Shown piece by piece: positions 10,524 through 48,395 of a stretch of DNA of 64,000 nt (position 1 is its first letter; each line of letters starts with the position of its first letter). The stretch is from a virus (Duplodnaviria; Caudoviricetes). The stretch is taken from positions 1 through 64,000 of IMG/VR virus record IMGVR_UViG_3300032038_000025; one strand, written 5' to 3'. The position numbers and the translations under genes were made by a program. The notes under the pieces are model-generated. The model made no database searches. It saw only the letters and a program-made list of their open reading frames with translations, and was not told the origin of the DNA.

Positions 10524-10716
10524 ATATACGGATGCTGGCGGAGAACTTCTTCAGCCGCGGTAGAAAGAAGGCTCGGTAGGCTTTATCAGATTTGAGGCGT
10601 CCAGTGTAAATCTGTTTTAATACCTGAAAAAGGGACAAGAGTAGGGGTCTGCCAAACCAGAGTCCCTGAAACAGCTACGGCGCAAGTTAAGAGAAATGCT
10701 GTTAGGGCAGACATTT

Positions 10717-10789
10717 ATGACCATAGTCTAATAGGTTAAGACGGGAGTCTTTCAAGCTCTTAATGTGAGTTCAAATCTCACTGGTTGTA
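10717..10789 (+). tRNA. tRNA-Glu(TTC)
   Basis: Cloverleaf; anticodon loop CT-TTC-AA. Confidence 0.8.
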
Positions 10790-10800
10790 TTATTTTTTAT

Positions 10801-14366: not shown

Positions 14367-14438
14367 CGCTCAGTGGTCAAGTGGTTAAGACGCCAGTCTC
14401 TAAAACTGGAAACTCGAGTTCGATCCTCGGATGAGCGA
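14367..14438 (+). tRNA. amber suppressor tRNA (CTA anticodon) with a tRNA-Glu-type body
   Basis: CCAGT-CT-CTA-AA-ACTGG (anticodon 14400-14402); D arm TGGTCAAGTGGTTAAGAC; 4-nt variable loop; C1:G72. Confidence 0.9.
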
Positions 14439-15639: not shown

Positions 15640-15713
15640 GGCTCCATCGTCTAAATGGTAAGGACGCAGCCCTTTCAAGGCTGAAATGTTGGGTTCAAGT
15701 CCCATTGGAGCTG
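15640..15713 (+). tRNA. tRNA-Glu(TTC), second copy
   Basis: CAGCC-CTTTCAA-GGCTG. Confidence 0.9.
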
Positions 15714-15717
15714 CTAT

Positions 15718-15801: not shown

Positions 15802-16032
15802 TTCTCGTAGCCGTATATTTATGGGTAGCTCCCAACGAGAGATATAAATAAATACGGTAAATCTTAATTTATATAACTGATCGACCCAGGCGTAAGGGTA
15901 CAGAATATGACAATATCTATATTGTAAATTCCGCGGTTTAAGTGATGAACGTATGCATTGGTTATAACGCAGCCATTAATAAAAAGAATTGTTCTCAAAG
16001 ATTTAAGAATGAGAATGAAAGGAGATTTTATT

Positions 16033-16329
16033 ATGAAAATTTTATATCAAAGTGACATTACAGGTAAAACTTATGAATCTGAGGCGGCCCTTGTAAAAGC
16101 AGAAGCTGAAATTTCAAAAGCAAAGCAGGAAGAAGAGCTAAAGAAGAAAGAACGCGCAGAAGCGGCAAAGGTAGTTCAAGCTAAACTGGACGCCGCCAAG
16201 AAAGCTCAGAAAGAAGCTCAGGAGAGTCTTGTTGACTTTTGTAAAAAGTATGGAACATTTAAGACCTCTCTTGACAGAAAAAGCGTTTTTGATCCATTCA
16301 GTTTTTTCTTTGATCCATTTGAGTTTTAA
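16033..16329 (+). CDS. hypothetical coiled-coil protein
   Basis: GGAG RBS before MKILYQS. Confidence 0.75.
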   Translation: MKILYQSDITGKTYESEAALVKAEAEISKAKQEEELKKKERAEAAKVVQAKLDAAKKAQKEAQESLVDFCKKYGTFKTSLDRKSVFDPFSFFFDPFEF

Positions 16330-16402
16330 CCCATAAATCACGAAATACTTATCTGATTATTTACAGTTTTCATGGCGTTTTGCGAATGCAAGACGCTTTT
16401 AA

Positions 16403-16473
16403 CGAGAATGTGGTGTAATGGTAGCACGCCAGTTTTGGGAACTGGAGGCGAGGTTCGAATCCTACATTTTCGA
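16403..16473 (+). tRNA. tRNA-Pro(TGG)
   Basis: CCAGT-TTTGGGA-ACTGG. Confidence 0.8.
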
Positions 16474-16582
16474 TTACTTTTTTATTAATTATTACAAAAG
16501 TTTTACATTTTGGTCAAATTTATGTAATATTTCCTTAATATTTTTTATATTTAATATAAGAAATAGTTAAGGAGGAAAAATA

Positions 16583-17458
16583 TTGATTAAAAAATTTATT
16601 GTAGTATTATTATCATGTTTTATTTTATGCGGTTTTGCAAGTCCAATAGAAGCAAGCGAATTAAATTAGAAGAAATCTCTTCCAATTTAGCCCACACTGA
16701 GAACAAATTTTAATCAAAATGCTAATTTAAAGATTAATGATTATAATTTTATTGACACTTTGGAAAAACGTAGTAAAAATAAAAAAAGTGATAATATAAC
16801 CTTTTTACATGCGGTTCCCGTCTTACATGCGGAAATAGTCGAGGTCCCCGCATAGCCAGTAGAAGAATAGGTTTATATAGAATAGGAGCCTATTGTTTAT
16901 GAAGAATAGGTTGCTTATTAGGAAGAACCAGTTTACTATGAATAGGAGCCTACAGTCTATTATTAGGAACCAATTTATTATGAAGAAACTGTAATTCCAG
17001 AAGAAGAAGAATATATAGTATATGAATAGCCACAATACGTTGAAGAAGAAATAACTTATAATTATGAAACAACAGAACAAGTATCTTATGATAATTCTTC
17101 TACCGTTGGTCAATAGATTGTAAATAATGCATTACAATATGTTGGTAATCCTTATGTATATGGCGGAAATAGTTTGACAAATGGAATTGACTGTTCTGGT
17201 TTTACTCAACAAATATTAGCGGCGTCTGGTATTACAATAGACAGAACAGCAGAAAGTCAATCTTATGGTGGAGAATATGTTGATTTAAATAATTTACAAG
17301 CTGGAGATTTATTATTTTATGATAATGGTGATTTTATTGGGCATGTTGCAATCTATTGCGGAGATGGAACAGTTGTACATGCCAGTGATGAAATTACGGG
17401 TATAACTGTTTCTGATGTTAACTACAGAACTCCAGCATTAGCTAAAAGGTACTGGTAA
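16583..17458 (+). CDS. secreted NlpC/P60 (C40) peptidase with E/Y/P-rich linker (11 in-frame TAG)
   Basis: GGAGG RBS and TTG start; signal peptide; GNPYVYGG..GIDCSGF, GHVAIY and HAS motifs. Confidence 0.85.
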
Positions 17459-17472
17459 CAGTACCTAATTAA

Positions 17473-17556
17473 GCGCGTGTCACCTAGCGGCTAGGGTAAC
17501 GGACTTTTAATCCGTCAAGATTCGTCTCATCGTGGGTTCAAATCCCGCCACGCGCA
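17473..17556 (+). tRNA. tRNA-Lys(TTT) with long variable arm
   Basis: ACGGA-CTTTTAA-TCCGT followed by a 16-nt variable region. Confidence 0.8.
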
Positions 17557-17936
17557 TTTTCTGCGGGAAGAACAATATCAAATAATATTGTAGGTATGGT
17601 GAAATGATATATCCGCCTCAAAACAGAAACTGTCTCAGCAGTAATATTATAATACATTAAAACAGTTGAATTGTAAATAATTTTGATTTTGTCGGTTTAT
17701 AATCCAAGACTGAGATATTGGAGTGATCAGCTGCACTTAATAAATAAACGATAAAATTCGTAGATGAAATTATAAACTATATTATTTGAAAAACAAGGGA
17801 ATAGGATGAGGAGCGGCGATGCAGACCACTTAATAATGTCTAGGCATCAAGTAGTTTTAGAATAATATAGTTTATAAGGAAGTCTAAAAAATATTTGATT
17901 TTTAATAAAAATTTTGATATAATATATATATAAAGT

Positions 17937-18054
17937 TAAGACATTTACAGCAAACATTAAAAAAATATTATATTGTCGTGAGTTCAAGTCTCATCTTTTT
18001 CCGAGCGAAAGAGTAGATCAGCTGGTAGATCAAATAATAAATTAAATGTCTTGA
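17937..18054 (+). ncRNA. stem-ACAGCAA module 3 with circularly permuted tRNA domain (YrlA/Y-RNA-like)
   Basis: Order is T arm (17978-17994), loop-closed acceptor (17995-18013), D arm (18016-18031), inside the AAGACATTT/AAATGTCTT stem. Confidence 0.75.
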
Positions 18055-18058
18055 TTAA

Positions 18059-18130
18059 AGCCCCTTCGCCAAGTGGTAAGGCACAGCACTTTGACTGCTG
18101 TATGCGGTGGTTCGAATCCACCAGGGGCTG
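18059..18130 (+). tRNA. tRNA-Gln(TTG)
   Basis: GCCAAGTGGTAAGGC D arm; CT-TTG-AC loop. Confidence 0.9.
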
Positions 18131-18133
18131 TAG

Positions 18134-18205
18134 ACTCCGATAGCATAATGGAGAGAACATGTGACTACGGATCATAAGATGGGGGTTCGACTCCCTCTCG
18201 GAGTA
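18134..18205 (+). tRNA. tRNA-Arg(ACG)
   Basis: Cloverleaf, weak D stem. Confidence 0.75.
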
Positions 18206-18212
18206 TTTATAT

Positions 18213-18343
18213 GGGAGATTAGGCTAATAGGTAAACCGCGTTATGTTAAAACATCGGTTTTGTAAAAACCCGAATCAGCAAATTTAAATGATAAACAGTT
18301 GCTTGGGGCGCACGTATTAGAGGTTCGAGTCCTCTATCTCCTA
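18213..18343 (+). tRNA. tRNA-Pro(GGG) with a 59-nt insertion in the anticodon stem
   Basis: Removing about 18242-18300 restores CGTGC-TTGGGGC-GCACG. Confidence 0.65.
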
Positions 18344-18346
18344 TTA

Positions 18347-18499
18347 AAAATCAACTTATAGTGAGTGAAAGCCTAACGACAGGGGAGGAAAAGGAATCGC
18401 AAGGGTAACATTTTTCTCGTCGGACATTACCCAATCCGAAAAATCGGGTCTTACGCTAGATTGACCGACGCCGCGGAAAGTAGCTATAAGTTGATTTTA
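18347..18499 (+). ncRNA. structured RNA candidate closed by a 15-bp stem
   Basis: AAAATCAACTTATAG ... CTATAAGTTGATTTT with a GC-richer interior. Confidence 0.45.
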
Positions 18500-18527
18500 T
18501 AAAAAATTTTTGTTATAATATAAATAT

Positions 18528-18593
18528 AAGATATAAACAGCAAAAAATATTAATCGCCACATTTCAAGTTTGATTAGCTTACAATATATCTTG
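18528..18593 (+). ncRNA. stem-ACAGCAA module 5
   Basis: AAGATATA-A-ACAGCAA ... TATATCTTG, after a promoter. Confidence 0.55.
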
Positions 18594-18605
18594 TTTAAAA
18601 ATCTT

Positions 18606-18693
18606 TAGATACTAACAGCAATTTAATTTAACATTATTTAATTTTTAAATCTTGATGTAAAGAATAAAAACTTAAATTTTTAAAGGTATCTAG
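18606..18693 (+). ncRNA. stem-ACAGCAA module 6
   Basis: TAGATACT-A-ACAGCAA ... GGTATCTAG. Confidence 0.55.
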
Positions 18694-18920
18694 TTTAAAA
18701 TTTTAAAAGATTTCAAGTATGGTTTTTCGCAATCACACTTATTTTCACTCCCTTTCTTTTGATTTTGGACTAGTCAATTTTGGCTAGTCCGTTTTTTTAT
18801 GAGTCAATAGCCAAATGGTAAGGATGTTAAGAGCAAAATTAAAAAACTTTGGTCCGATTTTAATAATTCTTTTCTTATAATTTTTATTAATAGTAGAAAG
18901 ATAAGAAAGGAGAATTTCAA

Positions 18921-19664
18921 ATGATTGGAATTTATAAAATTACAAATAAAATTAATGGATTAAGTTATATTGGACAAAGTGTTCATATTGAAAGACGTTT
19001 TATTGAACATTGTCTGCCATCAAAAACGTCAAAAATCTCTTGTGCAATTCAAGAATATGGAAAAGATAATTTTGATTTTTCTGTATTAGAAGAATGTTCT
19101 CAAAAGTAGTTAAATGATAGAGAACAATATTGGATTCAATATTTTAATACTATTGTACCTTATGGCTATAATGTAGCAGAAACTAATAGTGCTACTAATC
19201 ATACTGTTTATTACTATTATAATAAAGAACAGTTACAATCTATTTTAAAAGATTTATAGAATAATCAATATACATTAAAAGATATTGCGAAAAAATATAA
19301 TTTAAATATTAGTACCATTTCAAGAATTAATAAAGGTTTAATTCATTGGCAGCCTAATATTCAATATCCAATTAAAGATACTAATCGAAAGAATTTACCT
19401 AAAAAATATTGTATAGATTGTGGAATTGAAATTTCTTATACAGCAACTCGTTGTAATAAATGTGCTGCTAAACAAAGAACTATTGAAAAACCTATTAATC
19501 GAGAAGAATTAAAAAAATTAATTAGAAATACCCCTTTTACAACAATAGGAAAGCAATTTAATGTAACAGATAACGCAATACGAAAATGGTGTAAAAGTTA
19601 TAATCTTCCAACCACAAAAAAAGAAATTAAACAATATACTGAAAAAGAGTGGGAACAAATTTAA
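18921..19664 (+). CDS. free-standing GIY-YIG homing endonuclease (2 in-frame TAG)
   Basis: GIYKITNKING.SYIGQS..IERR; LNDREQYWI; Zn ribbon and HTH; 247 aa with read-through. Confidence 0.85.
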
Positions 19665-19673
19665 ATGCCACTT

Positions 19674-19758
19674 GAGGAAGTGACCGAGCTGGTTAAGGAG
19701 TTGGTCTGCAAAACCAATACAGTAGAAATACTCATGGGTTCAAATCCCATCTTCCTCT
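19674..19758 (+). tRNA. tRNA-Cys(GCA) with long variable arm
   Basis: TTGGT-CTGCAAA-ACCAA; AGTA-GAAA-TACT variable hairpin; U73. Confidence 0.8.
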
Positions 19759-19858
19759 TTGTTGATTTTAAATAAAAATTTTGATATAATATATATATAA
19801 GGTTATGAAAGATAACCTCAAACAAAAGTTTGAAAGAGATAAAAGGAGAAAAAATACT

Positions 19859-21388
19859 ATGAATACTTTTCTTAATCAGATGACCAAGGATAACAATATC
19901 ACTCGTACAGAAAATGGCGGCATTACCCGCAAGAGTACAGAATCTAAGGTACTTGATATGTTCGGAATGGGCGGTGCATATAGAAGTCGTTCTGATGCAG
20001 ATGTTATTCTTCTTTTTAAGAATGCATTTGAGGAAGATCGCCTTCTAGCTATGAAGTGTCTATTCTATCTGAGAGACATTCGCGGCGGCCAGGGTGAGAG
20101 GCGCTTCTTTAGAACCGCTTTTCGTTGGCTTTGTAACGAATATCCGCAGGTTGCTAAGGCAAATCTTGAGAATGTCAGTGAATATGGTCGTTGGGATGAT
20201 CTGATCTACGTTGCTGAAGGCACTCAGGTGCAGACCGCCGCATTTAATATTATCAAGCGTCAGCTGGCTCTTGATATCCAGTGTAAAACTCCGTCTCTTC
20301 TTGCAAAATGGATGCCTTCTCAGAATGCTTCTAATGCAGATACTAAAAGACTTGGGCATATTCTGGCAAATTTCTTAGGAATGACTAGCCGCGAGTATCG
20401 CAAGACTCTTTCTACTCTGCGTGAGCGTATTAATGTTCTTGAGAGACTGATGAGCGCAAACCGCTGGGATGAGATTGAGTTTGATAAGATTCCTTCTAAG
20501 GCAGGACTTATTTATCGTAATGCTTTTGCAAGACGAGATATTCTTGCTAAGAAGTATGAAACCTTTGCTAAGAGCAAGAGTACTGAAGTAAATGCAGATG
20601 CGCTGTATCCGCATGATATTGCCCACAGAGCATTTAAAATGTCTGTTAGTCTTGAAGATCCAACTCGTCTTATGCTTCAAAAGTATTGGGATAATCTCAA
20701 AGACTTTTATTGCGGTAGAGAGGAAAATGGTATTGCGGTTATTGATGTGTCTGGCTCTATGAGCGGAGTTCCGATGGAGGCCGCAGTTTCTATGGGAGCT
20801 TATATTGCAGATAAGGCACATGGTCCATTTGCAAATCATTTTATTACTTTTTCTGCTCACCCGCAGCTGGTGAAGTTTGAGGGAGTAGATATTGTTGATA
20901 AATTTAAGCGTTGTGTTCGTGCGGATTGGGGTATGAATACAAATGTGCAGGCAGTGTTTAATATGCTTTTAAATACTGCTAGGAGACAGGGCGTAAAGGC
21001 TGAAGATATGCCGACCAGAATTTATATCTTCTCTGATATGGAGTTTGATGAGTGTGTGTCTTTTGATCGCACCTCTTCTAATCGTTCTTATGATGATTAT
21101 TGGAACGGAAGATGGGATTCTTATCATACTATTAACTCTATTGACGAGGCAAACTCTGACCTTGAGAAGATCAAGTCAGAATGGGCGCATTATGGATATC
21201 AGATGCCTCAGATTATCTTTTGGAATCTTAATGCCAGAAATAATCGGATTCCTGCGATCGGCGATGGATTCAGCTATGTAAGCGGATTCTCCCCTTCCAT
21301 GATTGATTGCATCCTGAGCGGCAAGGATGGTTGGGATCTGATGGTTGAAAAGCTCATGTCTGAGCGCTATAAGGCGGTTACCGCATAA
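19859..21388 (+). CDS. DUF2828-family protein (TROVE/Ro60-like N-terminus plus vWA domain)
   Basis: TENG, RDIRGGQGERR, YGRWDD, AKWMP, MIDAS DVSGSM, FSDMEFD and FWNL motifs. Confidence 0.85.
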   Translation: MNTFLNQMTKDNNITRTENGGITRKSTESKVLDMFGMGGAYRSRSDADVILLFKNAFEEDRLLAMKCLFYLRDIRGGQGERRFFRTAFRWLCNEYPQVAKANLENVSEYGRWDDLIYVAEGTQVQTAAFNIIKRQLALDIQCKTPSLLAKWMPSQNASNADTKRLGHILANFLGMTSREYRKTLSTLRERINVLERLMSANRWDEIEFDKIPSKAGLIYRNAFARRDILAKKYETFAKSKSTEVNADALYPHDIAHRAFKMSVSLEDPTRLMLQKYWDNLKDFYCGREENGIAVIDVSGSMSGVPMEAAVSMGAYIADKAHGPFANHFITFSAHPQLVKFEGVDIVDKFKRCVRADWGMNTNVQAVFNMLLNTARRQGVKAEDMPTRIYIFSDMEFDECVSFDRTSSNRSYDDYWNGRWDSYHTINSIDEANSDLEKIKSEWAHYGYQMPQIIFWNLNARNNRIPAIGDGFSYVSGFSPSMIDCILSGKDGWDLMVEKLMSERYKAVTA

Positions 21389-21400
21389 TTCATATATATA

Positions 21401-21430
21401 GGGTGTGCAAAAAGCACACCCTATTTTTTT
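21401..21430 (+). terminator. Rho-independent terminator
   Basis: GGGTGTGC-AAAAA-GCACACCC followed by a T run. Confidence 0.85.
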
Positions 21431-21529
21431 GTTAAATAATTTGGTCAAAAATAAATAATTCTTCTATTGAATTTTTAATATATATTTAGATATAATAAAG
21501 TTTTAATGGAGACAAAAGGAGGAAAACAA

Positions 21530-24500
21530 ATGGCGTTAGTATCAAATTTATATCCGCCAATAGTTCAAGATACAAGTGTTGTTTTTTCTAAAAATACACC
21601 CTGTAGAATTTATTTTTAGTTATCTCCATATAATTCAGCTGATGATATAAAAAATGTACAAATTTCTTTAACAAATTTACGTACCAATGCTTCTGGTTTC
21701 AATAGTGATATTGTATAGAAATCTTCTGGAATAAAAATAGTTGGAATGAAAGATTAGGACTCTTCTTCTAGACATTATATTGAAATATTTCCGGCGGATA
21801 TGGCAAATGGCCAATTTGAAACAGGACAATTTTATAAAGTTCAGTTAAGATTTACGCATACTAGCGCGAAAGATATAGGAGATTTTATAAAACAATCAAG
21901 TAGCGATGAAGATAGCGATGAAAATAATTCTATAAAAAAATTAAAAAATGCTATATAGATAGTTTAGAATCTTGTAAATGAATATGAATATAAAGATGAA
22001 GAAACTATTAATAAATTAATAAATGAAATTAATGCAATAAATATTTCATCAAGAGAAAATGAAATAAATACAAAAGATATTGCTAATTGGCTATATAATC
22101 AAAGAGATTATTTTTCTTAGTGGTCTAAAATTATTTTAATAAAAGGTATAGATCCGCCGAGTATTTCGTTAAAATCTTTTAATGAAGTATAGAGTTTTTC
22201 TGGAAAAATTATGTTAACTCAACCTACTGTTAATATTGTTGGAAAAGTAAATTTTTCACAAAATAAGACAGATTCATTAAAAAGTTATAATATAAAACTT
22301 TATGATAAAGAGTCAAATGCTCTTTTATATCGAACAGAAGAAATATATCCTATTTCACCAGGTTCTAATGAGATTAATTATGAATTAATATATGATTTTT
22401 AGGATGCAGTTGATTATACTTTTAAATTAACATACACTACATTAGATGGATATACAAATTCAATTAGTAGGGATTTTTATATTATTCAAACCGAAGCGTT
22501 AACAGATAAAGTACCCGCAGATATAAATATTTTTGAAGATTCGGATAATGGAAGAATAAAAGTTAAAATTACCGCAAATACTGAAGATACTTTTTTAGGT
22601 AATATAGTCATTAGAAGAACTTCTTCTTAGTCTTAGTTTCATAAATGGGAAGATGTTCGTATTATTTCATATGCAGAATTTAGTAAAATTGATATTACTT
22701 GGTATGATAAAACTGTTAAAAGCGGCGTTTGGTATAAATATGGAATGCAAAAAGAAAACTCAACAGGATTTAGAGGAACTTTTACACAAGTAAAATAGCC
22801 AGTAATGTGTCTTTTTGATGACATATTTTTAATAAGAAAAAATGCTCAATTAAGAATAAATTTAAATCCATCTCTTAATGAATTTAAATATAATGTAATG
22901 GAATCTCAACAAAATCCATTAGGTTCAAAATTTCCTTTTATAAAAAGAAATTCTTCTAATTTTTTTAGAACATTCCCTATTGGAGGATTAATTAGTTCTT
23001 TTATGGATACTACAGATTGGTATGATCCTCATTTTTAGATTGGAATAAATAATAAAGGCGAAGAATAGGGTGTTTTTTATAATAATAAAAATTAGTTAAA
23101 ACTTTTTACATCAAAAGAAAAAATATATAAAAATTCTAAAGATTTATATAAACAATATAATAATGATAATAATATTAATTAGTATCAAGATTATATATAT
23201 GAAAGAGAATTTAGACAAAAGGTTTATGATTTTTTATATGCAAATGATGTAAAATTATTTAAATCTACAACAGAAGGAAATATTCTTATTAAATTAATGA
23301 ATATTGACTTTCAACCAATGGAGGCTTTAGGGCGGCGACTTTATTCATTTACCGCAACCGCTGTATAGATAGATGAATCTACTATTTTAAATTTTGATAA
23401 ATATGACATTCAAACAATTGGAACAGCCATCCAAGAAATTGGTTTTGATTATGATGTTTTAGGACAAATTGATGGAATTTTTAAGCCAAAAGATAATGGT
23501 AATGGTGCATCTGTTCCAGATAATATTATGCCATATATTCAACAAAAACAAAAAAATAGTCGTCAACAGTAGGGTTATATAGATGAACTTCAAAAACTAA
23601 AATGGGTAAGAATTGAAATTACATCTCCTCCATACGTTATTGTTAATGATGCTTCATTGGGATTAAGAAAAGCTAATCAAAATGATAATTTAGAAAATGC
23701 TATGATGGGATATTTAGTTATAATAAACGGAAATACAGTTATAATTCCTCCATCTGAATAGCGGCGAGATAATAATCTTCTTGAACCAAAAAATAATCCT
23801 ATTGAAGATATTTATATTTAGCATATAGGTTTTTTTGAATTAAAAGGAGATAATATTGCAGTTACTAGTTTAGCTTTCCCATAGGAAACTGAAGTAAGAA
23901 TAGATTATCTTGCTAATTTCATGTAGAAATAGGATGTTTCAAAGCAAATTAAAGGTGCTTATTATGACTATAGAGCTGGACAGCTTTATGATATATTTTA
24001 TCCTACCGATTCTGTTTTTAGAATAATTTCTAATAAATATTTGTTAGATTATGCAGATTACTATCAGAGATTAATTAATATTTCTGGAGTTGGACTTTCT
24101 GGCCCGCCTAAAACAACAGTATATGTAAGAGATTCTAAGGACAGTTCTTTTAATCGTCATATTTTAGAAAATGGATTTCTTCAATTAATAGATGAAGAAG
24201 CTAGCATTAATGGATTATATTTTTGCGGCGTTCATTTATAGCAATGTACGGATCCATTGTAGACCAAAAAAATAAATGGTCTTACTGATTTTAATTTTAT
24301 TGAAGGAACTTATTCTAATTTAAATGATATAATAAATCCTGCTAATGGCAATATCTATTAGATTGAAAAATGGGTAACAGAATAGGCGGCTGTTCAACCT
24401 TAGGCATGGATGGAAGATAATGTAATTCTAGTAGCAGAATTTAGTGAAACAGAAAGCCAAACATATAATTATACTTTATATCCAGAGTATTCTATTATAG

Positions 24501-25006
24501 ATCCTAAAAATTTATATACTTTATTATTAGATAGATATAAGTATAATTATAAGGTATATTTTGCTTATTATTATGGATGTTGGTACCTACTTCCCGCAAC
24601 AAGTCCTAATTAGGCAATAAGTGATGAAATAATAGATCAATTTTTAGAACAATTTAGACATGATATTAGATATTTAAGATAGGATGAATATATTATAACA
24701 GGTCAAAGTGCAGATACCTTTGAAGAAATAACAGATCCAATCCCAAATGGTGTATATACGATAGCTGCCGCGACAAATGATGAAGGTAGGTCTACTCTTA
24801 AAGGTACGAAAGAATATCTTATTAATACAGAATCTAAATATTCAAATAATATATTACAGGCTCTTATCAAAAATTCTAATAATAGATGTATTTATTATAA
24901 AGGTCAATGGTGCCATTTTACATCGGAAAATGATGTACTTTGTCCAGTTGAAGCCATTGTAGACTACTATTGTGAAATTGAAAAAGGAGTTTATAATAAT
25001 GGCTAA
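21530..25006 (+). CDS. large virion tail/baseplate protein (TAG read-through, about 1158 aa)
   Basis: GGAGG RBS; track fragments at 22211, 22805, 24041 and 24410 share its frame; LYPP, FS*WS and YEREF motifs. Confidence 0.75.
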
Positions 25007-27056
25007 TAATTTTCCATATTTAAAAGATTCTACTTTTTTAAAAAAATTTGATAGAATAAAATTAAAAGAACAACTTGTAAAATTAGTTGTTTTAGATTTT
25101 AAAACATAGACTCCCATCCAAGAAATTCAAGGTAAGGTTCTTGGAGGGAGCTTTACTTTTGATGGGTCTTCCGCGATGAGAAGAACTGGTAATGTTACTT
25201 TAGTAGCAAGTGATACAGAGAATAATTTAAGTAATGTTAATTATTTATTATCTATAAATAAAAAGATAGAAGTGTTAATTGGTTTTGTAAATACTACAAA
25301 TTAGTATTTAGACTATCCAGTTTTATGGTTTCCAATGGGAATTTATGTAATAGTAAATTCTAGTATTGCACATGGCTCTGGAGGAATAACTATTACATTA
25401 ACTCTACATGATAAAATGGCTTTATTAAATGGAGAATGCGGCGGCACCCTTCCCGCATCTGTTATTTTTAGTTAGGTTGAAGAGATAGACGAAGAAGGAA
25501 ATACTTATATAAGTAATCCAACTATTTATCAAATAATTCAATAGTTAGTTAATCATTTTGGCGAAGAACAGCTAGGAAAAATTATTATTAGTGATCTTGA
25601 TAATCAAATTAAAAAGGTTATGAAATGGACTGGCGGCAGCCCGCTGTATCGCTACAGTGGAGTAAATAAAGATGGTCAAATATCTTATAGTTTAACCACA
25701 AATTATAAAGATTTAAAAGATGAAAATAATAATCAATTAGATGTCTCTGAAATACAAAGTTATACATATGGAGATGATGTTGGTTATATTTTAACTGATT
25801 TTATATATCCTGGATAGTTACTTGGTAATGCGGGCGATTCTATTGTTACAATATTAGATCAAATTAAAAATACTTTAGGTAATTATTAGTATTTTTATGA
25901 TAGATAGGGAAATTTTCATTTTCAAGAAATAAAAAATTATTTAAATAATTCTTTTACAACTAGTATAATAAATGAAATAAAGTCATAGGATTATTCAATA
26001 AATTATAGTAGAGAAAAAAATGTATATTCATTTGATGATGCTAATTTAATTTTGTCATATACTAATACCCCACAATACCAGCAAATTAAAAATGATTTTG
26101 TTATTTGGGGAAAAAGAAAATCAATAGAAGGAAAAGAAATTCCTATTCGTTATCATTTAGCTATTGATGATAAACCGAAAGATGGAAATATATATTAGTG
26201 CTTTTTTTATGAAGATCCAGATGATGGTTTAATTAAAGCCAAAAAACCATTAATGTTTTCTTCTTTTGATAATCTACCTAAAAAAGGTTAGGCTGATATT
26301 TATTACTGCGTTTCTGACAATGATAATCAAGAGAAGAAAATATATAAATGGATTCCAGAGGCGGCAGCCTATCAATTAACTAATTATAAATTAAAAACTA
26401 TTATAACTTCAGACTATAGAACTGAATTATATTTTTCTGGAGTGGATAAATAGCCATTTGGATTAGATAGCAATTATTATTTCACTTAGTTAAAAAATGA
26501 ATGGCCTAAGATATATAATATTGAAACTGGCGAATTTAAAAATGCAAATAAAAATGCAGCAAACAATCTTGATTATTATTTAGATTTAATAGATTCATCT
26601 GCCGCAATATCAGAATTTAGTGTAAATAATATAGGAAGAAGAACTGCAACTATTGTAGATGATAAAATTAATTGTATTTTTGAACCAGAAATTCCTAATC
26701 TTATTTTAATTGAAGCTGGGGCAGAAAATGCAAATATAATTAAAAATTGGTGTAACAAACAAGGTCAAGATTGGATTCAAGTTAAGAGTGAAGTTTATTC
26801 TTTATTATTAACAGGAGGAACAATGCGATCTGCTTATGAATAGATTAGAAGATAGTTATATCAATACACATGTTATAATGAACAAGTATCAATAACAACT
26901 TTACCTATATATTATTTAGAACCAAATACAAGAATTTCAATTACAAATAATTAGATAGGAATTAATGGAGATTATATTATAAAATCTTTAACAATTCCCT
27001 TAGATATAAATGGAACTATGAGTATCTCTTGCTCAAAGGCAATTGATAGATTGTGA
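24999..27056 (+). CDS. tail/baseplate hub-like protein (TAG read-through)
   Basis: Overlaps upstream stop; WFPMGIYV, LGNY*YFYD and LPIYYLEPNTRI motifs; ends TGA. Confidence 0.75.
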
Positions 27057-27073
27057 TAAAAGGAGATAAAATA

Positions 27074-27874
27074 ATGTCATATAATGTTGGCCAATTTAGG
27101 TCTTTTGATATTGATATTGGAAATTATTTAACAGATTTAAATATAACAATTCACCAAGGAAATAATGGACTTACTAAGTCAACTTTTGAGAATGTTTAGT
27201 TTAAAGATGCTTATACTGATAATATAAATTTAATAACTTAGAATAATTATTATTCAAAATTTAAAATAAAAAAGATGCCAAAATCAGAACAAACTATTTA
27301 TTTAAAAGCTAAAAATAGTAATAGAGAACAAATTTTAGGAACTTTTAATATTGCTAATGCATCTAGCGAAAATGAAGAAGAGTTTTCTTTTTTTGAAATA
27401 GTTTTTTCTGTAAATGATAATTATAATCTTTTAGTTTGGTAGCTAGCTAGAACTTTTGAAGATTATGCTGGTTTAACATAGGACATTTTAAATCAAAATG
27501 CCGGACGTATGATTGATGTTGAAGACGCTGGACTTTATATAATAACAGATTTATTAGCTAATACAAATCAGAATCAAACTGGCACGAGTTCTTCACAAGG
27601 ATTTTTAAAACAAAAATTTAGTAATTTACAATATCTTAATAAAATTGGTATTCAAGGTCCGCCGCTAATGCTTATGAGTATCAATAGATAGCAAATAAGA
27701 ATTGGTAAAAATGGAATTTATGAATTAAATAATGGAATAAATGTTACTTCTATTGGATTTGTTCCCAAACAATATGAAGATAAAAAAGATTTTTTTATTA
27801 TGGATTTTGAATATTAGGCAATAAATTCAACAGAAGATGATATAAATAATAATGATGAATAGGAAGGAGAATAA
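27074..27874 (+). CDS. putative structural protein (TAG read-through)
   Basis: GGAG RBS; KIGIQGPP...IGKNGIYEL. Confidence 0.7.
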
Positions 27875-27879
27875 TAAAT

Positions 27880-30800
27880 ATGTACTCTTTTTATGGCGGC
27901 CGGCCTGGTAATTCTTTTGTTATTGTCACCACTTATGAGAGTGTTGATGATATGATAAAAAATTTTGAAAAAGGCCCAGAATATACCGCAGTTCATTATA
28001 ATGAATATGTATTAATAAATACACCAAATAAAAATGATCGAGATAATGGTAAAATCTTTAGACGCGGTTATGATTATAAAAATAAAATGGGTGGAGCTGA
28101 ATAGATTGGTCAAATTGTTGGTCCTGCGGGGCCTGCGCCAAATTTATAGGTTAAATCTATTGAAGACATTGATAATATTCCAGTCCCATAGGGATCAGTA
28201 AAAAGGCCTGCGGGAGATGAAGAAGAACCAGAACAAGTTGGATCTTGGTCAATAAGTAACAATGGTCTTATTCCTGGAAAAGACATTGATAAAAATAATA
28301 ATCTTGTTTATAATGATACCATTAATTGGAAAAGTTTTACAATAAGAAAAAGTGATAATTCAGAATCAACTGCATACATAGGTCTTCAAATCCCCTATCC
28401 TGTAATTGAATTTGAAACATCTTCAATAGAGCCTTATAATCAAGAAAATGAATATAAAGATACATCTAGTATAACTCGAATAGATGATTAGTCTCATCCC
28501 TTTTATGAAAAATGGCATATTAACATTCCAGAAGGAGTAAAAGGAGATTCATTTGAAAATCTTTATATTGCAAAAGATTAGAACGATGGGTTTGATCACT
28601 TATATTATAAAATAAAGAAATATGATGAAAATAAAAGTGGAGTCTCTACAGAACCTGTTGATTTAGGTGCTTTTAATATAATAAAAGATATTTCAATTAA
28701 TGAAGAAGGTACTATAACAATATCTTATACTGGACATACTCAAACAGTTTTTGAAAATGTAATAAAAAGTATAAATGATATTCAATTAAATAATGAAACT
28801 GGAAATTTAACGGTTTCATATAATCATGGAAATAATACCGTTCTTTAGGGAGCAATTAAAAGAATTGATAATATTAGTCTTTCAAGCGATGGTATTATAA
28901 GCGTAAAATACAATACAGAAGAAACGGCTCAAGAAATTAATCCAGACAATGGTATTAAATGGATAAATTAGCTTCAATTAACATCTAATGGAGATATGCT
29001 TGCAACATATAATCAGCCTATTGGAAGAATCTTTGTACAACGAATAGAAGATGAAGAAACTCAAACTTCTTATGAAGAAAGTTTTTACATTCCTCAAAGT
29101 GAAATTTCAGATTATTAGGCTAGAGTTGAAGCAGATACTACAGGAAATATATGGATTGAAGAAACTCCAATTGTAAGAATTTCAACCGAAAAAATTAAAT
29201 GGATTACCAATATGAGAATTGGTAATATGGGAATTCTTTAGGTTCAATATAATACAACTTCAGCCGATGAATGGGAAACATTATATGATTCAAATGATAG
29301 TCCTATTAGTTTAAAATTTGTTATTGATATGGGATTTGATAAATAGGGATATTTAATTGCAACATATAATAAACCGCTTTATTATTTAGATCAAGATGGA
29401 AATATAGTACAAGAAGAGAATATTAATGACCCTCAATATTAGGGCCAAACACTTTAGAAAGTTTACACTGAGAGACTTAGTGAAACTCCATTAAAATGGA
29501 TTACAAATATTACTCAAAATAATACAGATTTAATTATTGAATATAATACTACGCATAAGGTTAATAATGAGACAGAAAATGGATTGGTGGGCGAAGATAT
29601 TTATGAAAATGATTCAAATACTTTTGGAAATGTATTTAATGTTCCAACTGAATTAAAATTAGAAACAGGTGTTTTAAAAGTCCATTGGCGCGAAAAAACT
29701 GATTCAACCGCGGATGATTATTACTAGACCCTTGGTAATGTAGATTCTGTAGAAGATGTTGCATTAGATACTAAAGGCAATTTATTATTTAAATTTGCTT
29801 CTGGCAAAGGAGAAACAGATTATAGTAAAATTAAAGGAGAACCAGAAACAAAATGGCAATATATTGGAACGATTGCTCCAGGGGCATATGGATTTGATTC
29901 TAATTTAATTTAGATAAAAAATCAATATATTTTAGGATATTTAAAAGAAAAAAATTTACATTTTCGCCTTCCTACTTCTTATCTTTTACCAACAAGCATT
30001 ACAGGAGGACAAATTCAAGGCTCAGATGTAATTAAATTTTCTACAGATACTTCTTTAAGTCAAGAATTTTATCCATATAATAAAACATATACAATATAGT
30101 CTAGTATTACAGGAATTAACTTCACTTTCCAAGATGTAATAGAAAATGCTGTTGAAGATATAACTCCAGTTAATGTTTTTGTAAATTGGATGACTGTTGG
30201 ATTATAGATTGAAAAAGGCGGTGATCCAGATGTTTAGATTAATTGGCAAGTAAGATTAGAAGCATTAGAAACATTAGCTCAAAAATTAAATGCTACACTT
30301 TATTCGACTGATTAGGATGGTAATGAAATTAATAAAATAAAAAATTTTTAGACTCAAATAAATGATCTTAATAATCGAACAACCACAACTGAAAATAATT
30401 TAAGTACTATGCAGGGTTATATGGGAACACTTCCTTCTAATTCAACCTTTTCCGCAAGCACCTATGGAGGAACAACTGTTTTAAGTTCTTTAGCTGCACT
30501 TAAAAAACCTGCTAAACGAGTATTAACATTACTAAATGTTAAAAGTGATAAAGGTTATCATCCAAATTTAACAGTTAATGAAATGGAAAGAAATAAACGC
30601 GGAAGATATATGATGACGCCAGGCTGGACAGAAAAAGATGATGATAATGGCAGGGCGTGGAATATGAAAGAAGACTCTCAACAAATTATTTTAACAAAAG
30701 AAGATAGATTATCTCAACAATAGCATGGCTATATTTTAGAATGGCAACAATATAATTATGAAACTAATACAGTATTTAATGCTCAACACATGTTCTCTTT

Positions 30801-31059
30801 TATCCCAAAAGATTTTAGAGCCACTGGCTGGCAGGGCATAGCAATTCCATTAATTGGAGCAAGACAATCATGGGGATTAAAATATATTTATATTAGAGAA
30901 ACAAATGTAGAAGTTTATGAAAGTGCTTCAAGTAATAAAAAATTAACTGTTTCAGCTACACAAATTCATGGTCATTGGGAAAATAATCAAAAAATAACTT
31001 ATAATGGTATTACTTTTTCAAATAAAACCTATGTTTTAACTGCTATTTATGGAGTGTGA
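27880..31059 (+). CDS. putative tail-fibre/baseplate protein (TAG read-through, about 1059 aa)
   Basis: MYSFYGGRPG start; fragments at 30409 and 30790 in frame; internal repeats. Confidence 0.7.
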
Positions 31060-31066
31060 TATATAT

Positions 31067-31402
31067 ATGGGACATGATAATGGATTCTTTGGAAATTTAC
31101 AAGGACCATTTGTTGCAGGCGAATAGTTAATTGATAAAATTCAATAGCAATGTTTAGATGGTTCATTTCATTATATTTCAAAACTTGGTATCCATAGCGT
31201 CAGAAATTTTGATTTAGATATTACTGGAACATATTATCCTCAAACTATTATTATTATTAAAGAATCAACTAATCCAGATAAAAACATCGAATTTATTCTT
31301 GGTAAAACTGGTATGTTATAGTTAGAAGATTGTAAAATAGTATCTATTAAATTTAAAGAAGATACAGATGATAAAGTATATATAGATTATCAATATGAAT
31401 AA
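31067..31402 (+). CDS. small structural protein (TAG read-through)
   Basis: KLGI...LGKTGML*L motif, similar to the 27074 gene. Confidence 0.65.
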
Positions 31403-31484
31403 AATATTTTCAAAATTTTATTATTTTTCTTGACAAAATAAAAAATTTTTATTAAACTAATATCAAGGAAAAGAGGTTTAAATT

Positions 31485-31973
31485 ATGAAAATATTAACAT
31501 TAGATTTATCTACAAAATCATCTGGTTTCGCAATCGGATAGGACGAATCTTTAATATAGCATGGATGCATAACCGCAAGTTCAAAAGATGTGGTTAAACG
31601 TATTATAAAAATGCGGGATTAGTTATCTATTTTAATTAAAAATCATAAAATAGATAAAATTATTATGGAAGAGGTTCGTCCTGATTATAATGCTCATACT
31701 GGTAAAGTTTTAATGTGGTTACAATCTGCCATTGTAATAGCTGCATATTAGATTGATTCTAAAATAGAATGTTAGTTTATTACAGCAAGTCAATGGCGGG
31801 CGGCGCTTAAAATCCGCCAAGGACGAGGGGTAAAACGTGAATACCTCAAGCCGCAAGATATTCAATATGTTCAAGATAAATATAATATACGTGTGAATGA
31901 TGATTAGGCAGATGCCATTTGTTTATTTGATGCCTATTGGATTTTATTTAATAATGAAATGAATTGGGAATAA
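31485..31973 (+). CDS. RuvC-like Holliday junction resolvase (TAG read-through)
   Basis: ILTLDLSTKSSG, IIMEE, SQWR and NDD*ADAI motifs; entirely missing from the ORF track. Confidence 0.85.
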
Positions 31974-32417
31974 TAAAATATTTGGTCAAGTTTTATTAAT
32001 TTAACTCCTGCATTTTTAATATATAAATGTAGGAGTTAAAGTTTGAACAAAATACAAAAGGAGATATTACGCGTAATGGAAAATACAATAAATCAAGGAT
32101 ATCCTATTAATAATCCTTTTGGAAGCTCGCAAAGAGGCAATCTTTCGTCAATGGGAACTCCTACGCTACAGGGCAATCTTTTAAAAAAAGGTTCTCTGCC
32201 ATTAGATTACACATGCAACAATGTTTTCATATAATGTAGATCTTTCTATTGAACAGGAAGAGTTAATAGCAGATTTAATTTCCACATATGGTGAAGAAAT
32301 AATTTATATCACAAATAAAATATTCACAAAGTTGGGAAACATTTAAATATAAAATGGGGCTATTAATTTTTATAATTAATAGTCCCTGTTTTTTATTATA
32401 AATAAAGGGGATTAAAA

Positions 32418-33461
32418 ATGGATATTTTAACTGCCATAAAAATTAGGAATTTAGATGGTACATATTCAGATCCAATTCCTATAAGTGCCTTGGCAGAAAA
32501 TATTGTTTATGATAAAGATCACACTTTACTAGATGCTATTGGCACAATAGATATAGATGAATTAGGAAGTCTGCAAGACCAAATTTTAGAACTTAAATAG
32601 AGAGGTATTGATGCGGCGACCGCAAATGCTAATCAAGTTCCAGTCGCAGATGGACAAGGCGGCTGGTCTTGGCAAGATAAAACAAATACCTCTAATCAAG
32701 TAACAAACCTTTCAAATGTTGGAGGGGTAAATATTACTCAAGCATTAAATAATCTTAATGATTTAACTCAGAGTAATCAAGAAAAAATTTTAAATATGAA
32801 TAGTACAGCGGTAAATAATAATTCTTCAGTTGAAGGAGAAACTGTTTCTGCCGCTCTTGATGTTTTATCTAATAAGATAAACAATATAGATACAATGAAA
32901 GCTATTAGTGTATCCCTTAGTAAAGGTTCTTGCACTATTAACGTAAAACAAAATAGCGATATTGATTATTTAGATTGCTTTACAGATATACAAGTTTTAT
33001 AGGGATCAACAGATATTACGGACCTTTGCACTTTTAGTTTTACGCCTAGTTATGGAGTTTATGGAGTGTGGATTGCTTCTTCTCATAGATATAAAATAAC
33101 AGAATTAATAGATGTTACAAAAGGTGATGTTGTTTTTAATATTTCATATAAAGGAGTAACATTAACTAGAACTTTTTCTATTGTTTTAGTATATGATGGA
33201 GAAAGCGCAATTCGTACTGAAATTGAATCTAGTGCAGGAAATATTTTCAGAGGAAATAATATTTCAACAACATTAACTTGTCGGGTGTATCAAGGCACTG
33301 AAGAAATAACCAATAAAGTTAGTTCATTTAAATGGAAAAAATATAATGCAAATGGGACACTTGATGGATCATGGACTCGGCCATTAGCTGGTAATGTAAT
33401 TGATATTACTAATGCTGATGTATATGATCGAGCAGTGTTTAAATGCGAAGTAACGATATAA
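32418..33461 (+). CDS. tail-associated structural protein (TAG read-through)
   Basis: Three track fragments in one frame; Ig-like C-terminus. Confidence 0.7.
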
Positions 33462-33474
33462 AAGGAGGAAAATA

Positions 33475-36084
33475 ATGGCAACCACTAGCTATGGTTCAAT
33501 AACTATTGTTGACATTACTGATATAGGAGAATTTAGTGTATATCCTAAATGCAATTTACCCACAACTGTTATCTATTCTCCAGATGACAATATTTATACT
33601 CCTAACTGGGTGGGTCAAAATCTAGTTATTACTCCAGTTGCATATTATGCAGGATCCCCTGTTTCAGCTAATATTACTTGGCTTTGGGAAAGACAATAGG
33701 GAAATGGAGCACGAGCGGAAGTTAGTTCAACAAAAGGAGAAACAGTTAATTCAACTACAGGCGCTTTAACTGTTAATCAAAATCAATTTAATGGATCATA
33801 TTCTCAATTAACATACATTGTTACTGCGACATATCAAGATGCTACTCTTGGAAAAAATTTAGTCGCGGAAGGCCAAATTACTTTTAGTAAAGTAGAACAA
33901 GGAACATCTGCAAAAACCGCCCGAATTACTGGAGATAATATAATTAAATATGCGGGAGATGGAACAATTATTTCTCCTATTGTTAACAATAAGTCTTATA
34001 TTACTTTAACTGGTACTGTTACAAGATGTAATATTACTAAATGGACATATAATGGAGGAACTGCCTCATATCCTGCAAAATCAAATGCAACACCAGCTAC
34101 CTATCCAAATGGAGCAAATGGAAATACATTAAATGTATATGCAGATGATGATGTTTTTATAAATGATAAGGTTACTATTAAATTATAGACTAATGATACT
34201 AATACTTATGATTAGTTTACTATATATAAATTAAGAGATGGTGCGGCGGGCATATCTACTCTATCTGCTATTTTAACTAATGAAGATCAAATGATTCCTG
34301 CCAATTCAAATGGTTCACCTGTTAATATTGCTCAAAGTGGAGCAACCTCTCAAATAAAAATATATAGAGGTGGTTCAGATGTTACTGTATCAGAAAATTG
34401 GACTATTACAACAACAAGTGATACTGGAATTACATTTGATTCAAGTAAAACCGCACAAACCAATGATACTGTTACAGTAACTGGTATGAATGCCAGTCTT
34501 GCAGCTGGTAATATTTATTTTACTGCAACACATGGCACTTAGACATTAAATAAAACTTTTTCATTAGTAAAAGTTAAAGCAGGAGCTGATGCTTAGACAT
34601 TTTCTATTTATAGTTTAAGTGTAGATGCTTTGGCTTTAAATAGAAGCGTTACTTTAAATGATCAAGGAAGTGTTTCTACAGTTACGCTTAATCCTGCAAG
34701 TTTTATTGCAAGTGCAACTGAGACATAGGTATCTCCGTCTGCTGCAACTACAAAGGCTTTTGAGGGAAAATTTAGAATTACTGAATATTCTGGCGATACT
34801 TCAGAAATAAAATATACTACTAGTTCAACAGAATCTTCAAAAACGTATACTCCAACAACATCTAATACATTAACAAAAATTTTAGTTGAATTATTAGATA
34901 CCGCAGGATCAAATGTTTTAGATAAACAAACTATCGTTATTACATCTGATGGCGCAAAAGGAGAAGATGGAGAACAGGGTCCCGCAGGTAAAGATGCTGT
35001 TAGTATTATCTTAGGAAATGAAGCAGAAGTTTTTCCTTGTGATAATAATAATAAACCATTAAGTAAAATTACTGTTAGAATACCTTTTGGTGCATACAAA
35101 GGAACAACAAGAGTTGCTGCAACTGTTAATAAACCTCAATTGCTTGGAATTGCTGCGAGCACGTCTTCCACAAATGCTACTGCTTCTAGTGATGGTGTAT
35201 TAATTTATGAAATTCCAGTGACTAAAGAAATTACTAATGCTTCTGACACTTTAGCTTTAGTGTTTACTTGTGAAGGACAAACTTTTAATAAAGTATTTAG
35301 TTGGACTAGAAGTTCTGCCGCAAAGAATGGAATTGATGGAGTAACTATGTTATTATTTACTCCTAATGGAACATTATTTGAAAATCATACTGGGGATAAT
35401 CTTACTGTTGAAGGTTATTTACAAAGCGGATCCACCGATGTAACAAGCAGCGCAACTTGGAAATGGTATCAATGGAGCACCACTGGTTATACTGCGTTAG
35501 GAACCGCGACATCCGCAAATGCGTATTATAGCGGAAAAACTTTAACAATTAAGCCAGCCGCTGTTGATGGTTATAGCTCTTTTAAAGTTGAAGCTACATA
35601 TAATAGTAAAACATACACGCAATATATTTCAATAACAGATAAAACTGATCCAATTCAAGTAAGTGTTCATTCTACTCTTGGCACTCAACTTGTAAATGGT
35701 CAAGGATCTGGCGCGCTTTATGCAAGAGTAACACGCAATGGTACTGAAATTGATCCTATTGGAGATGGCGCTATTTCGACAGGGACTGCTAATCCAAGTG
35801 GCGGAAATAATGGAGATCATTATATAAAATTAGATGAAACTAATAGAATAGCTACTTTATGGTAGAAAACTGGAAATTCTTGGAGAGCAATGACCCCAAC
35901 CGCCACATATGAATGGTATTTTAGAGATGCTCAAAATAATCCTATTACAAATAGTACAACTTTAACAAATAAATTTGGTAGTGCCTATAATAGTTCAACT
36001 GGCAAAGTAACTGGAAAGTGTTTATATATAGATAAAACAACCGTTGATAATAAAATAACTATAGATGTAAAAGTAACAGTATAA
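33475..36084 (+). CDS. Ig-like repeat tail protein (TAG read-through)
   Basis: Four fragments in one frame; GSITIVDITD N-terminus. Confidence 0.75.
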
Positions 36085-42158: not shown

Positions 42159-42209
42159 AAAAGCCTTCTAATTAATTTTAAATAATTAATTAGAAGGCTT
42201 ATTTTTTTT
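42159..42209. terminator. bidirectional terminator at the convergence point
   Basis: AAGCCTTCTAATTAATT/AATTAATTAGAAGGCTT inverted repeat flanked by A and T runs. Confidence 0.85.
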
Positions 42210-43230
42210 ACTCTTTTTTAATAAGAGCAATTTGTATCTAATAAATACAATTATTATAAGTATTTATTGCATCGTTAATTCGTTTAGTATTATATACTAT
42301 TTCATAATTATCATTCTAACAAAGAAATTGAATATCATCAATAGGAGTCATTCCATCGCCTGAATGGCCAGTACTCTCATACCATGAATTGCCAGATACC
42401 CAAGGCATCCATCCTTTATTTAAAAGATGAACTTTATAAAAAATTTTACATACATTAGAGCTTACTTTTATTTTAACAATAGGGTCATTAAAAATACCTG
42501 TTTTAGTGTTATTAAAAGTATCCATTAAATACCCATGTTTAAGTGTCTATATAGTATAAGATATTTGAGGAATAATCTTACTGGGTTCTGGCTAAAGTTG
42601 CGGCGGCGTGTTGTGATATGCGGCGATGGCAGATATAATACCGCTTTGGTCTAGTTCTGTGCGGCTAACAACCTGCCTTCCCGCCACCCATAAATTTATA
42701 CAGAAATATGATAAATCAACATTCCCAGCTATTCCATTTACCTTTTCTGTTGAAGAAAAATGACATCCCTAACATATGGCTGGAATTTCTAGATTCTGTT
42801 TACTAAAATTAGCTATCCATAGCGGATAAACGCAGTCCCCGCGCATATAGTTATCAAAAAAGGTTTGATTTGTGTAAATACCCATTCGATATCCTGCCAT
42901 TTGAATGAATTGGTAAAAAGTATCTATTACATCTTTATTGTAATATTCTTCAATATCATAATAAATACACCAAGGATGGTATTTATTTACCATAGTCAAA
43001 ACCTATCTAGCTTCTTCTTTTGCTTCTTTTACATCTCTAGCATATGAGTGAAAGGAGATTGCATATGGAATATTTAATTGCTAAAAAATATATAAGAAAT
43101 CTATATTATTAGAATATTTTTTATTATATTTAATAACCGCCGCATTGAAGATACCTTTTTTATATTCATTTAAAAGTTGGTTTTGATCTATTGTATTAGA
43201 ATAATTTATAGAAATTACTTTATAAATCAT
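42208..43230 (-). CDS. GH25 muramidase-like protein with C-terminal cell-wall-binding repeats (TAG read-through)
   Basis: YYDIE, MGIYTN, LWIANF and V.GIAGNVDLS motifs; fragments in frame. Confidence 0.7.
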
Positions 43231-43490
43231 GACTATTGTTCTTCTTCTTTTTCATTTTTTTTAGGTTGCTCAATTGGAATAGTTATAGATTTTTCTTCTG
43301 TCTAAAAACAATTATTTTGAATATAATTTATTTTTAACTATTCTCTATGATTTAATATCTATTTCCAAATCTCATTTATTAAATAATATTTTAATAAAAA
43401 GGGAATTGAAGTTTCATTATTAAAAAAATTTATAAAATTTTGTTGAAACTAAAAGCAAATATCGTTAAATGTTTTTGTCTAATTATTCAT
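43227..43490 (-). CDS. small hypothetical protein (TAG read-through)
   Basis: AAGGA RBS; ATGA overlap with the next gene. Confidence 0.55.
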
Positions 43491-43505
43491 AATATTTTCC
43501 TTTAA

Positions 43506-48390: not shown

Positions 48391-48395
48391 ATATT

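Follow-up and report, generated by a model that had tools for sequence, protein, structure and literature searches.

The codon TAG most probably encodes glutamate in the tailed phage studied here, a reading to which we assign a probability of about 90%. If so, the acidic linker of its NlpC/P60 hydrolase would be a Glu-rich run spelled in part with TAG, and the phage would read this codon with its own tRNA(CUA). TAG is a sense codon that selection treats as Glu, and the suppressor tRNA is Glu-like. The window, by which we mean the whole stretch of DNA that was analysed, comprises the first 64 kb of a 117,928-bp tailed-phage contig from the ruminant gut that is estimated to be 88% complete. Among phages that differ in code from their hosts, Borges et al. 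(bioRxiv 10.1101/2021.08.26.457843) report only TAG to Gln and TGA to Trp. Gln (table 15) is also the published meaning of TAG in phAss-1 (proposed Phassvirus, OQ749652.1; PMC10607447), hereafter Phass-1. A search of the full-text literature for TAG or UAG as glutamate returned only ciliates, and no virus or prokaryote. Within the literature searched, all published phage cases assign TAG to Gln.

The gene for the hydrolase, an apparently secreted cell-wall enzyme, lies on the plus strand at 16583–17458 (291 codons, TTG start, TAA stop, 11 in-frame TAGs) and is open only if TAG is sense. TAA and TGA occur at none of its 291 codons, compared with 11 and 33 in the other two frames, and a random frame of the same composition would stay open with P ~6e-8. 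Read by eye, the N-terminus (16583–16654, +) looks like a signal peptide, with a basic start, a hydrophobic core and a small-residue cleavage region, and it is a putative export signal. N-termini of a similar type are found in the NlpC/P60 homologs of two related loci, L001 and L048. The catalytic domain (residues 188–281; 17144–17425, +) matches Pfam PF00877 with 81.3 bits against a cut-off of 23, and the Cys of the D-C-S-G motif and two His positions (H-V and H-A) are conserved relative to 4HPE. The closest solved relatives are the Tn916-like cell wall hydrolases 4HPE and 9UBF (E ~5e-19). Like these hydrolases of Firmicutes mobile elements, the phage protein has an N-terminal export signal (putative here), a linker and a C-terminal NlpC/P60 domain. 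Unlike them, its linker is an acidic Glu/Tyr/Pro repeat that is partly TAG-encoded, and its gene lies within a phage tRNA array. This array has 21 genes, with tRNA-Pro to one side of the hydrolase gene and tRNA-Lys to the other, and the placement (window 16403–17556) is kept in L001 and L048. An SH3b-like N-terminal domain occurs in the homologs of L001, L048 and L159 and is absent from the window protein.

The linker itself, rich in Glu, Tyr, Pro and Val, spans residues 86–152 (16838–17038, +) and is made of units in which two or three Glu codons are followed by P, I/V/T, V/Y and Y. Among its codons are eight TAG, 16 GAA, three GAG and a single CAA. The peptide quoted in the initial annotation is the exact frame-1 translation of 16583–17458 on the plus strand. 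Its placement of eight TAGs at 16853–17029 (+) also holds. They lie within the Glu runs of an E-E-E-P-x-Y-Y type linker, and these coordinates run from the first TAG to the last (starts at 16853, 16868, 16883, 16907, 16919, 16943, 16964 and 17027). The other three TAGs of the gene lie outside the linker, at 16667, 16688 and 17114. Each linker TAG adjoins one or two GAA/GAG codons, the first being preceded by GCA. In five units TAG occupies the first, second or third place beside two GAA/GAG codons, so that reading it as Glu restores a run of three Glu each time. Translation with table 30 accordingly gives regular Glu runs, and any non-Glu reading turns the regular triplets into an irregular pattern. 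On the Glu reading, eight of the 27 linker Glu positions would be written TAG in place of GAA or GAG, and with the linker Glu thus partly spelled TAG, the codon looks interchangeable with the Glu codons.

At least eight TAGs among 59 random triplets would be expected with P ~2e-6. The repeat is imperfect, and Tandem Repeats Finder reported no tandem array in the linker. Two TAG-bearing strings are each present twice (GAA-GAA-TAG-GTT and GAA-TAG-GAG-CCT), so some of the eight TAGs duplicate others, the eight are not fully independent, and binomial P values overstate their independence.

Considered by itself, the linker rejects Gln and leaves Glu, Tyr, Pro and Val. Eight TAGs against one CAA/CAG codon would be improbable if TAG were a Gln codon (P = 0.0011, given a TAG share of 0.34 in the other TAG-using genes), and eight against 19 GAA/GAG codons are unexceptional if it is a Glu codon (P = 0.16, TAG share 0.27). 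The distribution of TAG along the gene fits that of Glu (Fisher 0.72) and departs from that of Gln (0.0098). Lys, Asp, Ser, Leu, Asn and Gly are likewise rejected by this in-gene test, which is compatible with Pro (0.68), Tyr (0.28) and Val (0.08). The initial annotation had taken the linker as a homology-free indication of Glu. The direction of that claim stands, with Gln, Lys, Asp, Ser and Leu all rejected, but it was overstated in that Pro, Tyr and Val remain. Glu is singled out only when homologous linkers, the genome-wide alignment and the tRNA are added. The homologs of the standard-code loci L157 and L162 have Glu-rich linkers of the E-E-P-I-Y type, with one and two Gln, respectively. 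A dipeptide model trained on these two linkers favours Glu at the eight TAG sites by 18–20 log units over Val, Tyr and Pro.

Reading TAG as sense throughout the genome reveals 356 in-frame TAGs in 57 of 118 open reading frames (ORFs), with TAA and TGA absent from those frames. About half of the genes thus use TAG, mainly those for tail, lysis and virion functions. They fall into TAG-rich blocks (21506–36084, 42208–57511 and 109285–115324) that alternate with TAG-free blocks (for example 59286–69596 and 71724–84678). Most ORFs end in TAA, the main stop codon, and TAG is not in excess near ORF ends (16 observed, 16.9 expected). The genome thus combines the hallmarks of a stop-codon-recoded phage: TAG-sense genes, a CUA suppressor tRNA and confinement of TAG to a subset of genes. 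Code 15, in which TAG is Gln, would be marked by alignment to Gln and by a suppressor of the tRNA-Gln type, and neither was found. Nor does the phage use table 30 as such, in which both TAA and TAG are Glu: TAG is Glu-like here, but TAA terminates most ORFs. An assembly artefact was also considered and rejected, as TAG is conserved as TAG in 55 aligned pairs from independent assemblies.

We compared the genome with its relatives using a TAG-free neighbour gene (19805–21388) as anchor, which retrieved 80 related loci from IMG/VR together with flanks of 10 kb. Scanning metagenomes with the NlpC/P60 protein yielded two further recoded relatives that are closer, L048 and L049, and IMG/VR scans with two large TAG-rich proteins, used singly, gave no matches. 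All phage proteins, with X at each TAG, were then compared by tblastn with 83 related phage loci. Across these, 117 window TAG positions could be aligned, and the codons facing them were GAA 239 times, GAG 32 times, TAG 55 times and CAA 30 times. By residue, Glu (271) far outnumbers Asn (58), Asp (48), Tyr (42) and Gln (30). The TAG profile was scored against the substitution profiles that the individual amino acids show in these alignments. Glu gave the best log-likelihood (−1716.8), ahead of Gln (−1958.9) by 242 units and followed at a greater distance by Tyr (−2711.6). Low-identity alignments add noise to these counts. The relatives are also phylogenetically non-independent, which counting by position lessens and does not remove.

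The result persists where the alignments are most reliable. Among conserved columns, defined by at least four relatives and 60% agreement, 26 of those at window TAGs are Glu and one is Gln, and the same definition returned 177 self-matches for control Glu codons and 65 for Gln. A strict local filter (five of eight flanking residues identical) left 131 GAA/GAG and eight CAA codons. Counted by position, GAA/GAG were found at 29 and CAA at eight of 52 positions. Against the 53 loci that have no in-frame TAG, the tally was 37 Glu to one Gln. Exchange in related contigs had been suggested as a check on the proposal that TAG is synonymous with the Glu codons; TAG is exchanged with GAA/GAG 271 times and with CAA/CAG about 30 times, so the outcome that would have spoken for Gln, exchange mostly with CAG/CAA, was not seen. 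The proposal of synonymy is borne out by linker codon choice, homologous linkers, the genome-wide alignment and the tRNA, which all agree.

Individual sites illustrate the pattern. In the RecJ-like protein, the sole conserved TAG column was compared with five distant homologs, those of four standard-code phages and of Phass-1; Glu is present in Phass-1 and in three of the four standard-code phages, and Asp in the remaining one. Compared with PDB structures, the TAGs of RecJ fall at variable positions, and RuvC had no PDB match. In the GH25 endolysin (ORF 57601–59226), the TAG at 58963–58965 on the minus strand aligns with the E of I-D-V-E-F in lysozyme 2WAG, that is, with the Glu of the D-x-E motif, which we take to be a catalytic residue. 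A further case comes from strains: four public gut metagenome runs, from bovine and sheep gut, carry strains diverged from the window over 16000–35999, and their contigs read GAA in place of the TAG at 28489–28491 (+), within ORF 27880–31059. This reading comes from 40 differences listed of about 3,700 in that region. In one of the runs (X3), the third base is A at all depth and the first base is G in 35 of 58, so that part of the depth would read TAA there. The contigs of this run end about 10–60 bases from the site, and an alignment-end effect is possible.

Codon context points in the same direction. A neighbour-context classifier, applied genome-wide with the linker excluded, ranked Glu first (−7381.3, compared with −7421.2 for Gln). 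The bases directly before and after TAG showed nothing notable. In TAG-using ORFs, 11% of TAGs have a Glu codon just before them and only 3.4% have one just after; the corresponding values around GAA/GAG are 8.2% and 8.5%. The base after TAG has no bias to match this asymmetry.

The only CUA tRNA in the window, found with ARAGORN at 14367–14438 (+; 55.9 bits on the Rfam tRNA model), adjoins tRNA-Asp and has a body of the tRNA-Glu type. It aligns with tRNA-Glu genes; its base pairs include C1:G72 and U11:A24, base 73 is A, the D loop is long and the variable loop has 4 nt. For comparison, the window encodes two tRNA-Glu genes, tRNA-Glu(UUC) at 15640–15714 (+) and another at 10716–10790. Its tRNA-Gln(UUG) at 18059–18130 (+) has A1:U72 and G73, its D stem contains C11:G24, its D loop is shorter and its variable loop has 5 nt. 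The features of the suppressor recur in phage tRNA-Glu genes (A73 in 29, U11:A24 in 22 and the 4-nt variable loop in 21 of 32). Phage tRNA-Gln genes are marked by an A:U or U:A 1:72 pair in 77 of 83 and by G73 in 76. The anticodon is CUA and not the YUC of tRNA-Glu. In E. coli, U11:A24, the 4-nt variable loop (no residue 47) and the long D loop are identity or architecture elements for GluRS. A CUA anticodon lacks two anticodon determinants that the E. coli enzyme uses, and Glu charging of this tRNA is therefore not self-evident. Work on bacterial tRNA-Gln and tRNA-Glu has identified a strong 1:72 pair, a base other than G at 73 and a long D loop as anti-determinants.

Covariance models built from 31 tRNA-Glu and 62 tRNA-Gln genes scored the suppressor at 64.2 bits as Glu and 51.9 bits as Gln, a gap of 12 bits. 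We relied on such models and on structural features after global similarity of suppressors to 909 phage tRNAs gave no isotype discrimination. A DNA pattern for the suppressor yielded one chance match, in L047, without a tRNA. Across the suppressors of the Glu group, the Glu model was ahead by 8–15 bits in 11 of 12 tested, and the L049 suppressor scored 53.0 bits on the Glu model and was not in the Gln-model list. The Gln model was ahead by 10 to more than 20 bits for L195, L204, L180, L181, L186 and two of the three Phass-1 suppressors. One of these two scored 63.2 bits as Gln and 52.8 as Glu, and the other, a long one, scored 53.2 as Gln and was absent from the Glu-model list.

The same alignment tally was run all-against-all for every locus, with Phass-1 as control. 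Gln was called for Phass-1, as published, and for about 25 other relatives, and thus the method is able to return Gln. Glu was called for the window genome and for nine other loci (L135, L133, L151, L136, L159, L132, L049, L174 and L134), with margins of 39–283 log units, and all nine carry a Glu-type suppressor tRNA. Together with the covariance scores, these calls show the code, Glu or Gln, varying in step with the type of tRNA body across this phage family, L130 (six TAG positions, ambiguous call) and L154 apart. A quick tree built on the anchor protein unites the Glu loci in a single clade (SH-aLRT 99) and places L151 elsewhere, a position that suggests mosaicism. The L151 anchor protein shares only 60% identity with that of the window, and the suppressor tRNAs of L151 and L136, both Glu-code loci, differ by a single base. 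This combination suggests that modules may be exchanged between lineages with different codes.

One locus inside the Glu clade, the 11.6-kb L128 (IMG/VR 3300021255_002369), has an anchor protein 86% identical to that of the window. Its 24 aligned TAG positions face 48 Glu and 37 Gln, with Gln ahead by 26 log units, and the fetched part has no tRNA.

How should TAG be read, given these data? Glutamine (code 15), with a linker of mixed Glu and Gln, is one candidate, as Gln is the only meaning of TAG reported for recoded phages and Glu/Gln-rich linkers do exist. Moreover, CAA faces eight well-aligned window TAG positions in some relative, and one TAG of the GH25 gene lies opposite Q in 2WAG. These observations are outweighed by the deficit of 242 log-likelihood units, the 26 Glu columns to one for Gln, and a linker codon choice that Gln would yield with P = 0.0011. 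A pipeline that does recover Gln for Phass-1 did not do so here. The suppressor also lacks the weak 1:72 pair and the G73 that 77 and 76 of the 83 tRNA-Gln genes possess, and is 12 bits lower on the Gln model, and we consider this reading very unlikely. A related idea, that tRNA(CUA) is charged in part with Glu and in part with Gln through mischarging or partial amidation, so that proteins are statistical mixtures, strikes us as improbable as well. Engineered E. coli amber suppressors derived from tRNA-Glu are partly glutaminylated, which lends this idea some plausibility. The TAG profile (E 0.39) is also slightly flatter than the profile of true Glu codons (0.49). However, such flattening is also expected if TAG is merely commoner at variable sites, and a large Gln fraction would be costly at the presumed catalytic Glu of GH25 and in the conserved Glu columns.

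Tyrosine, or another residue common in the linker such as Pro or Val, has in its favour the in-gene TAG distribution (P 0.28 for Tyr, 0.68 for Pro and 0.08 for Val). Tyr codons are, in addition, one base from TAG, the linker is Tyr-rich, and one register of the repeat sets TAG opposite TAT. We regard this reading as scarcely credible, given that the homolog-linker dipeptide model favours Glu over all three by about 20 units, that the genome-wide log-likelihood of Tyr is −2711.6 compared with −1716.8 for Glu, and that the tRNA(CUA) has a short variable arm unlike that of bacterial tRNA-Tyr. Finally, TAG could be a true stop, as it is in table 11, and the phage has no release-factor gene of its own; the hydrolase gene would then be a pseudogene or the source of a rare readthrough product. 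Against the 356 in-frame TAGs in 57 of 118 ORFs that lack TAA and TGA, the retention of TAG as TAG in 55 aligned pairs with relatives, the presence of a dedicated tRNA(CUA) and the involvement of essential virion and lysis genes, we see almost no chance that this is so.

Taking glutamate as the meaning of TAG, we can propose how the codon would be read. The phage tRNA(CUA) at 14367–14438 would decode TAG after being charged with Glu, probably by the GluRS of the host. The genome, on a contig estimated to be 88% complete, has no match to a GluRS or GlnRS catalytic domain or to the PCRF domain of release factors, and charging by the host is inferred from this. The non-Gln acceptor end (strong 1:72 pair, base other than G at 73) and the long D loop may bar the tRNA from GlnRS or from the Glu-to-Gln amidotransferase GatCAB. 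With TAG confined to late genes, translation of these genes would be tied to the phage tRNA, as has been proposed for code-15 phages.

The phage resembles the code-15 phages (crAss-like, Lak, Garnet, Topaz and Agate; Borges et al., bioRxiv 10.1101/2021.08.26.457843; Peters et al., PMC9523058) in several respects. In both, in-frame TAGs gather in late, structural and lysis genes and are missing from early ones, the timing being presumptive for the phage described here. Both encode a tRNA(CUA) without a dedicated synthetase and would rely on host enzymes. Unlike in the code-15 phages, where TAG is Gln, here TAG is read as Glu and the suppressor has the body of a tRNA-Glu, not of a tRNA-Gln. Phass-1 is a distant relative (25–53% identity over about 25 shared proteins) of about 136 kb that shares the large tRNA set, the recoding of TAG and the possession of tRNA(CUA) genes. 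In contrast to the suppressor described here, two of those in Phass-1 show the Gln-like combination of a weak 1:72 pair with G73. The nuclear code of peritrich ciliates (NCBI table 30) likewise assigns TAG to glutamate. However, that code belongs to eukaryotic nuclei and reads TAA as Glu too, whereas here a bacteriophage has its own suppressor tRNA and retains TAA as a stop.

A broader and more tentative picture, which we think possible but doubtful, is that a single family of large, Firmicutes-type gut phages uses TAG with two sense meanings. A clade of at least 12 ruminant-gut contigs would read it as Glu, and sister lineages would read it as Gln or stop. The meaning might then be set by a few tRNA identity elements (the 1:72 pair, base 73 and the D stem and loop) that decide whether Glu-tRNA(CUA) stays as it is or is acted on by GlnRS or GatCAB. 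If this is true, a few changes in a tRNA could give a codon another meaning throughout the genome, and co-infecting relatives with different codes would be hindered from exchanging genes. A phage family in which code and tRNA body vary together is a natural setting in which to study changes in codon meaning.

There are practical consequences also. Annotation pipelines apply table 15 to recoded phages. If Glu is what TAG means in this clade, databases hold the wrong residue at about 350 positions per genome, including catalytic ones such as the Glu of the GH25 D-x-E motif. Natural codes would gain a case of TAG as Glu outside the ciliates. Stop reassignment in phages would, furthermore, not be confined to GlnRS and TrpRS, the two synthetases regarded as having an inherent tendency to charge suppressor tRNAs. 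Peptides from the linker hold several TAG-encoded positions, at each of which Glu and Gln differ by 0.98 Da.

The tRNA genes of these phages include other unusual forms. Phass-1 has three different tRNA(CUA) genes, among them those at L045:12445–12532 and L046:5746–5820. In one of the three, an insert of about 21 nt enlarges the variable region, a type also present in L190, L205, L163, L171 and L179. The D stem of another is Lys-like (GCTC/GAGC), and this tRNA scores 52.1 bits on the Glu model and 46.1 on the Gln model. ARAGORN also finds tRNAs with anticodon UUA, which would read TAA, at L133:6561–6635 and L173:1109–1181; L133 is a Glu-code locus that also carries a tRNA(CUA). In the window, tRNA-Lys(UUU) (17473–17556, 84 nt) and tRNA-Cys(GCA) (19674–19758, 85 nt) are unusually long for their isotypes, the extra sequence lying in the variable region, and a variable region of 15 nt is found in 13 of 67 phage tRNA-Cys genes from the related loci.
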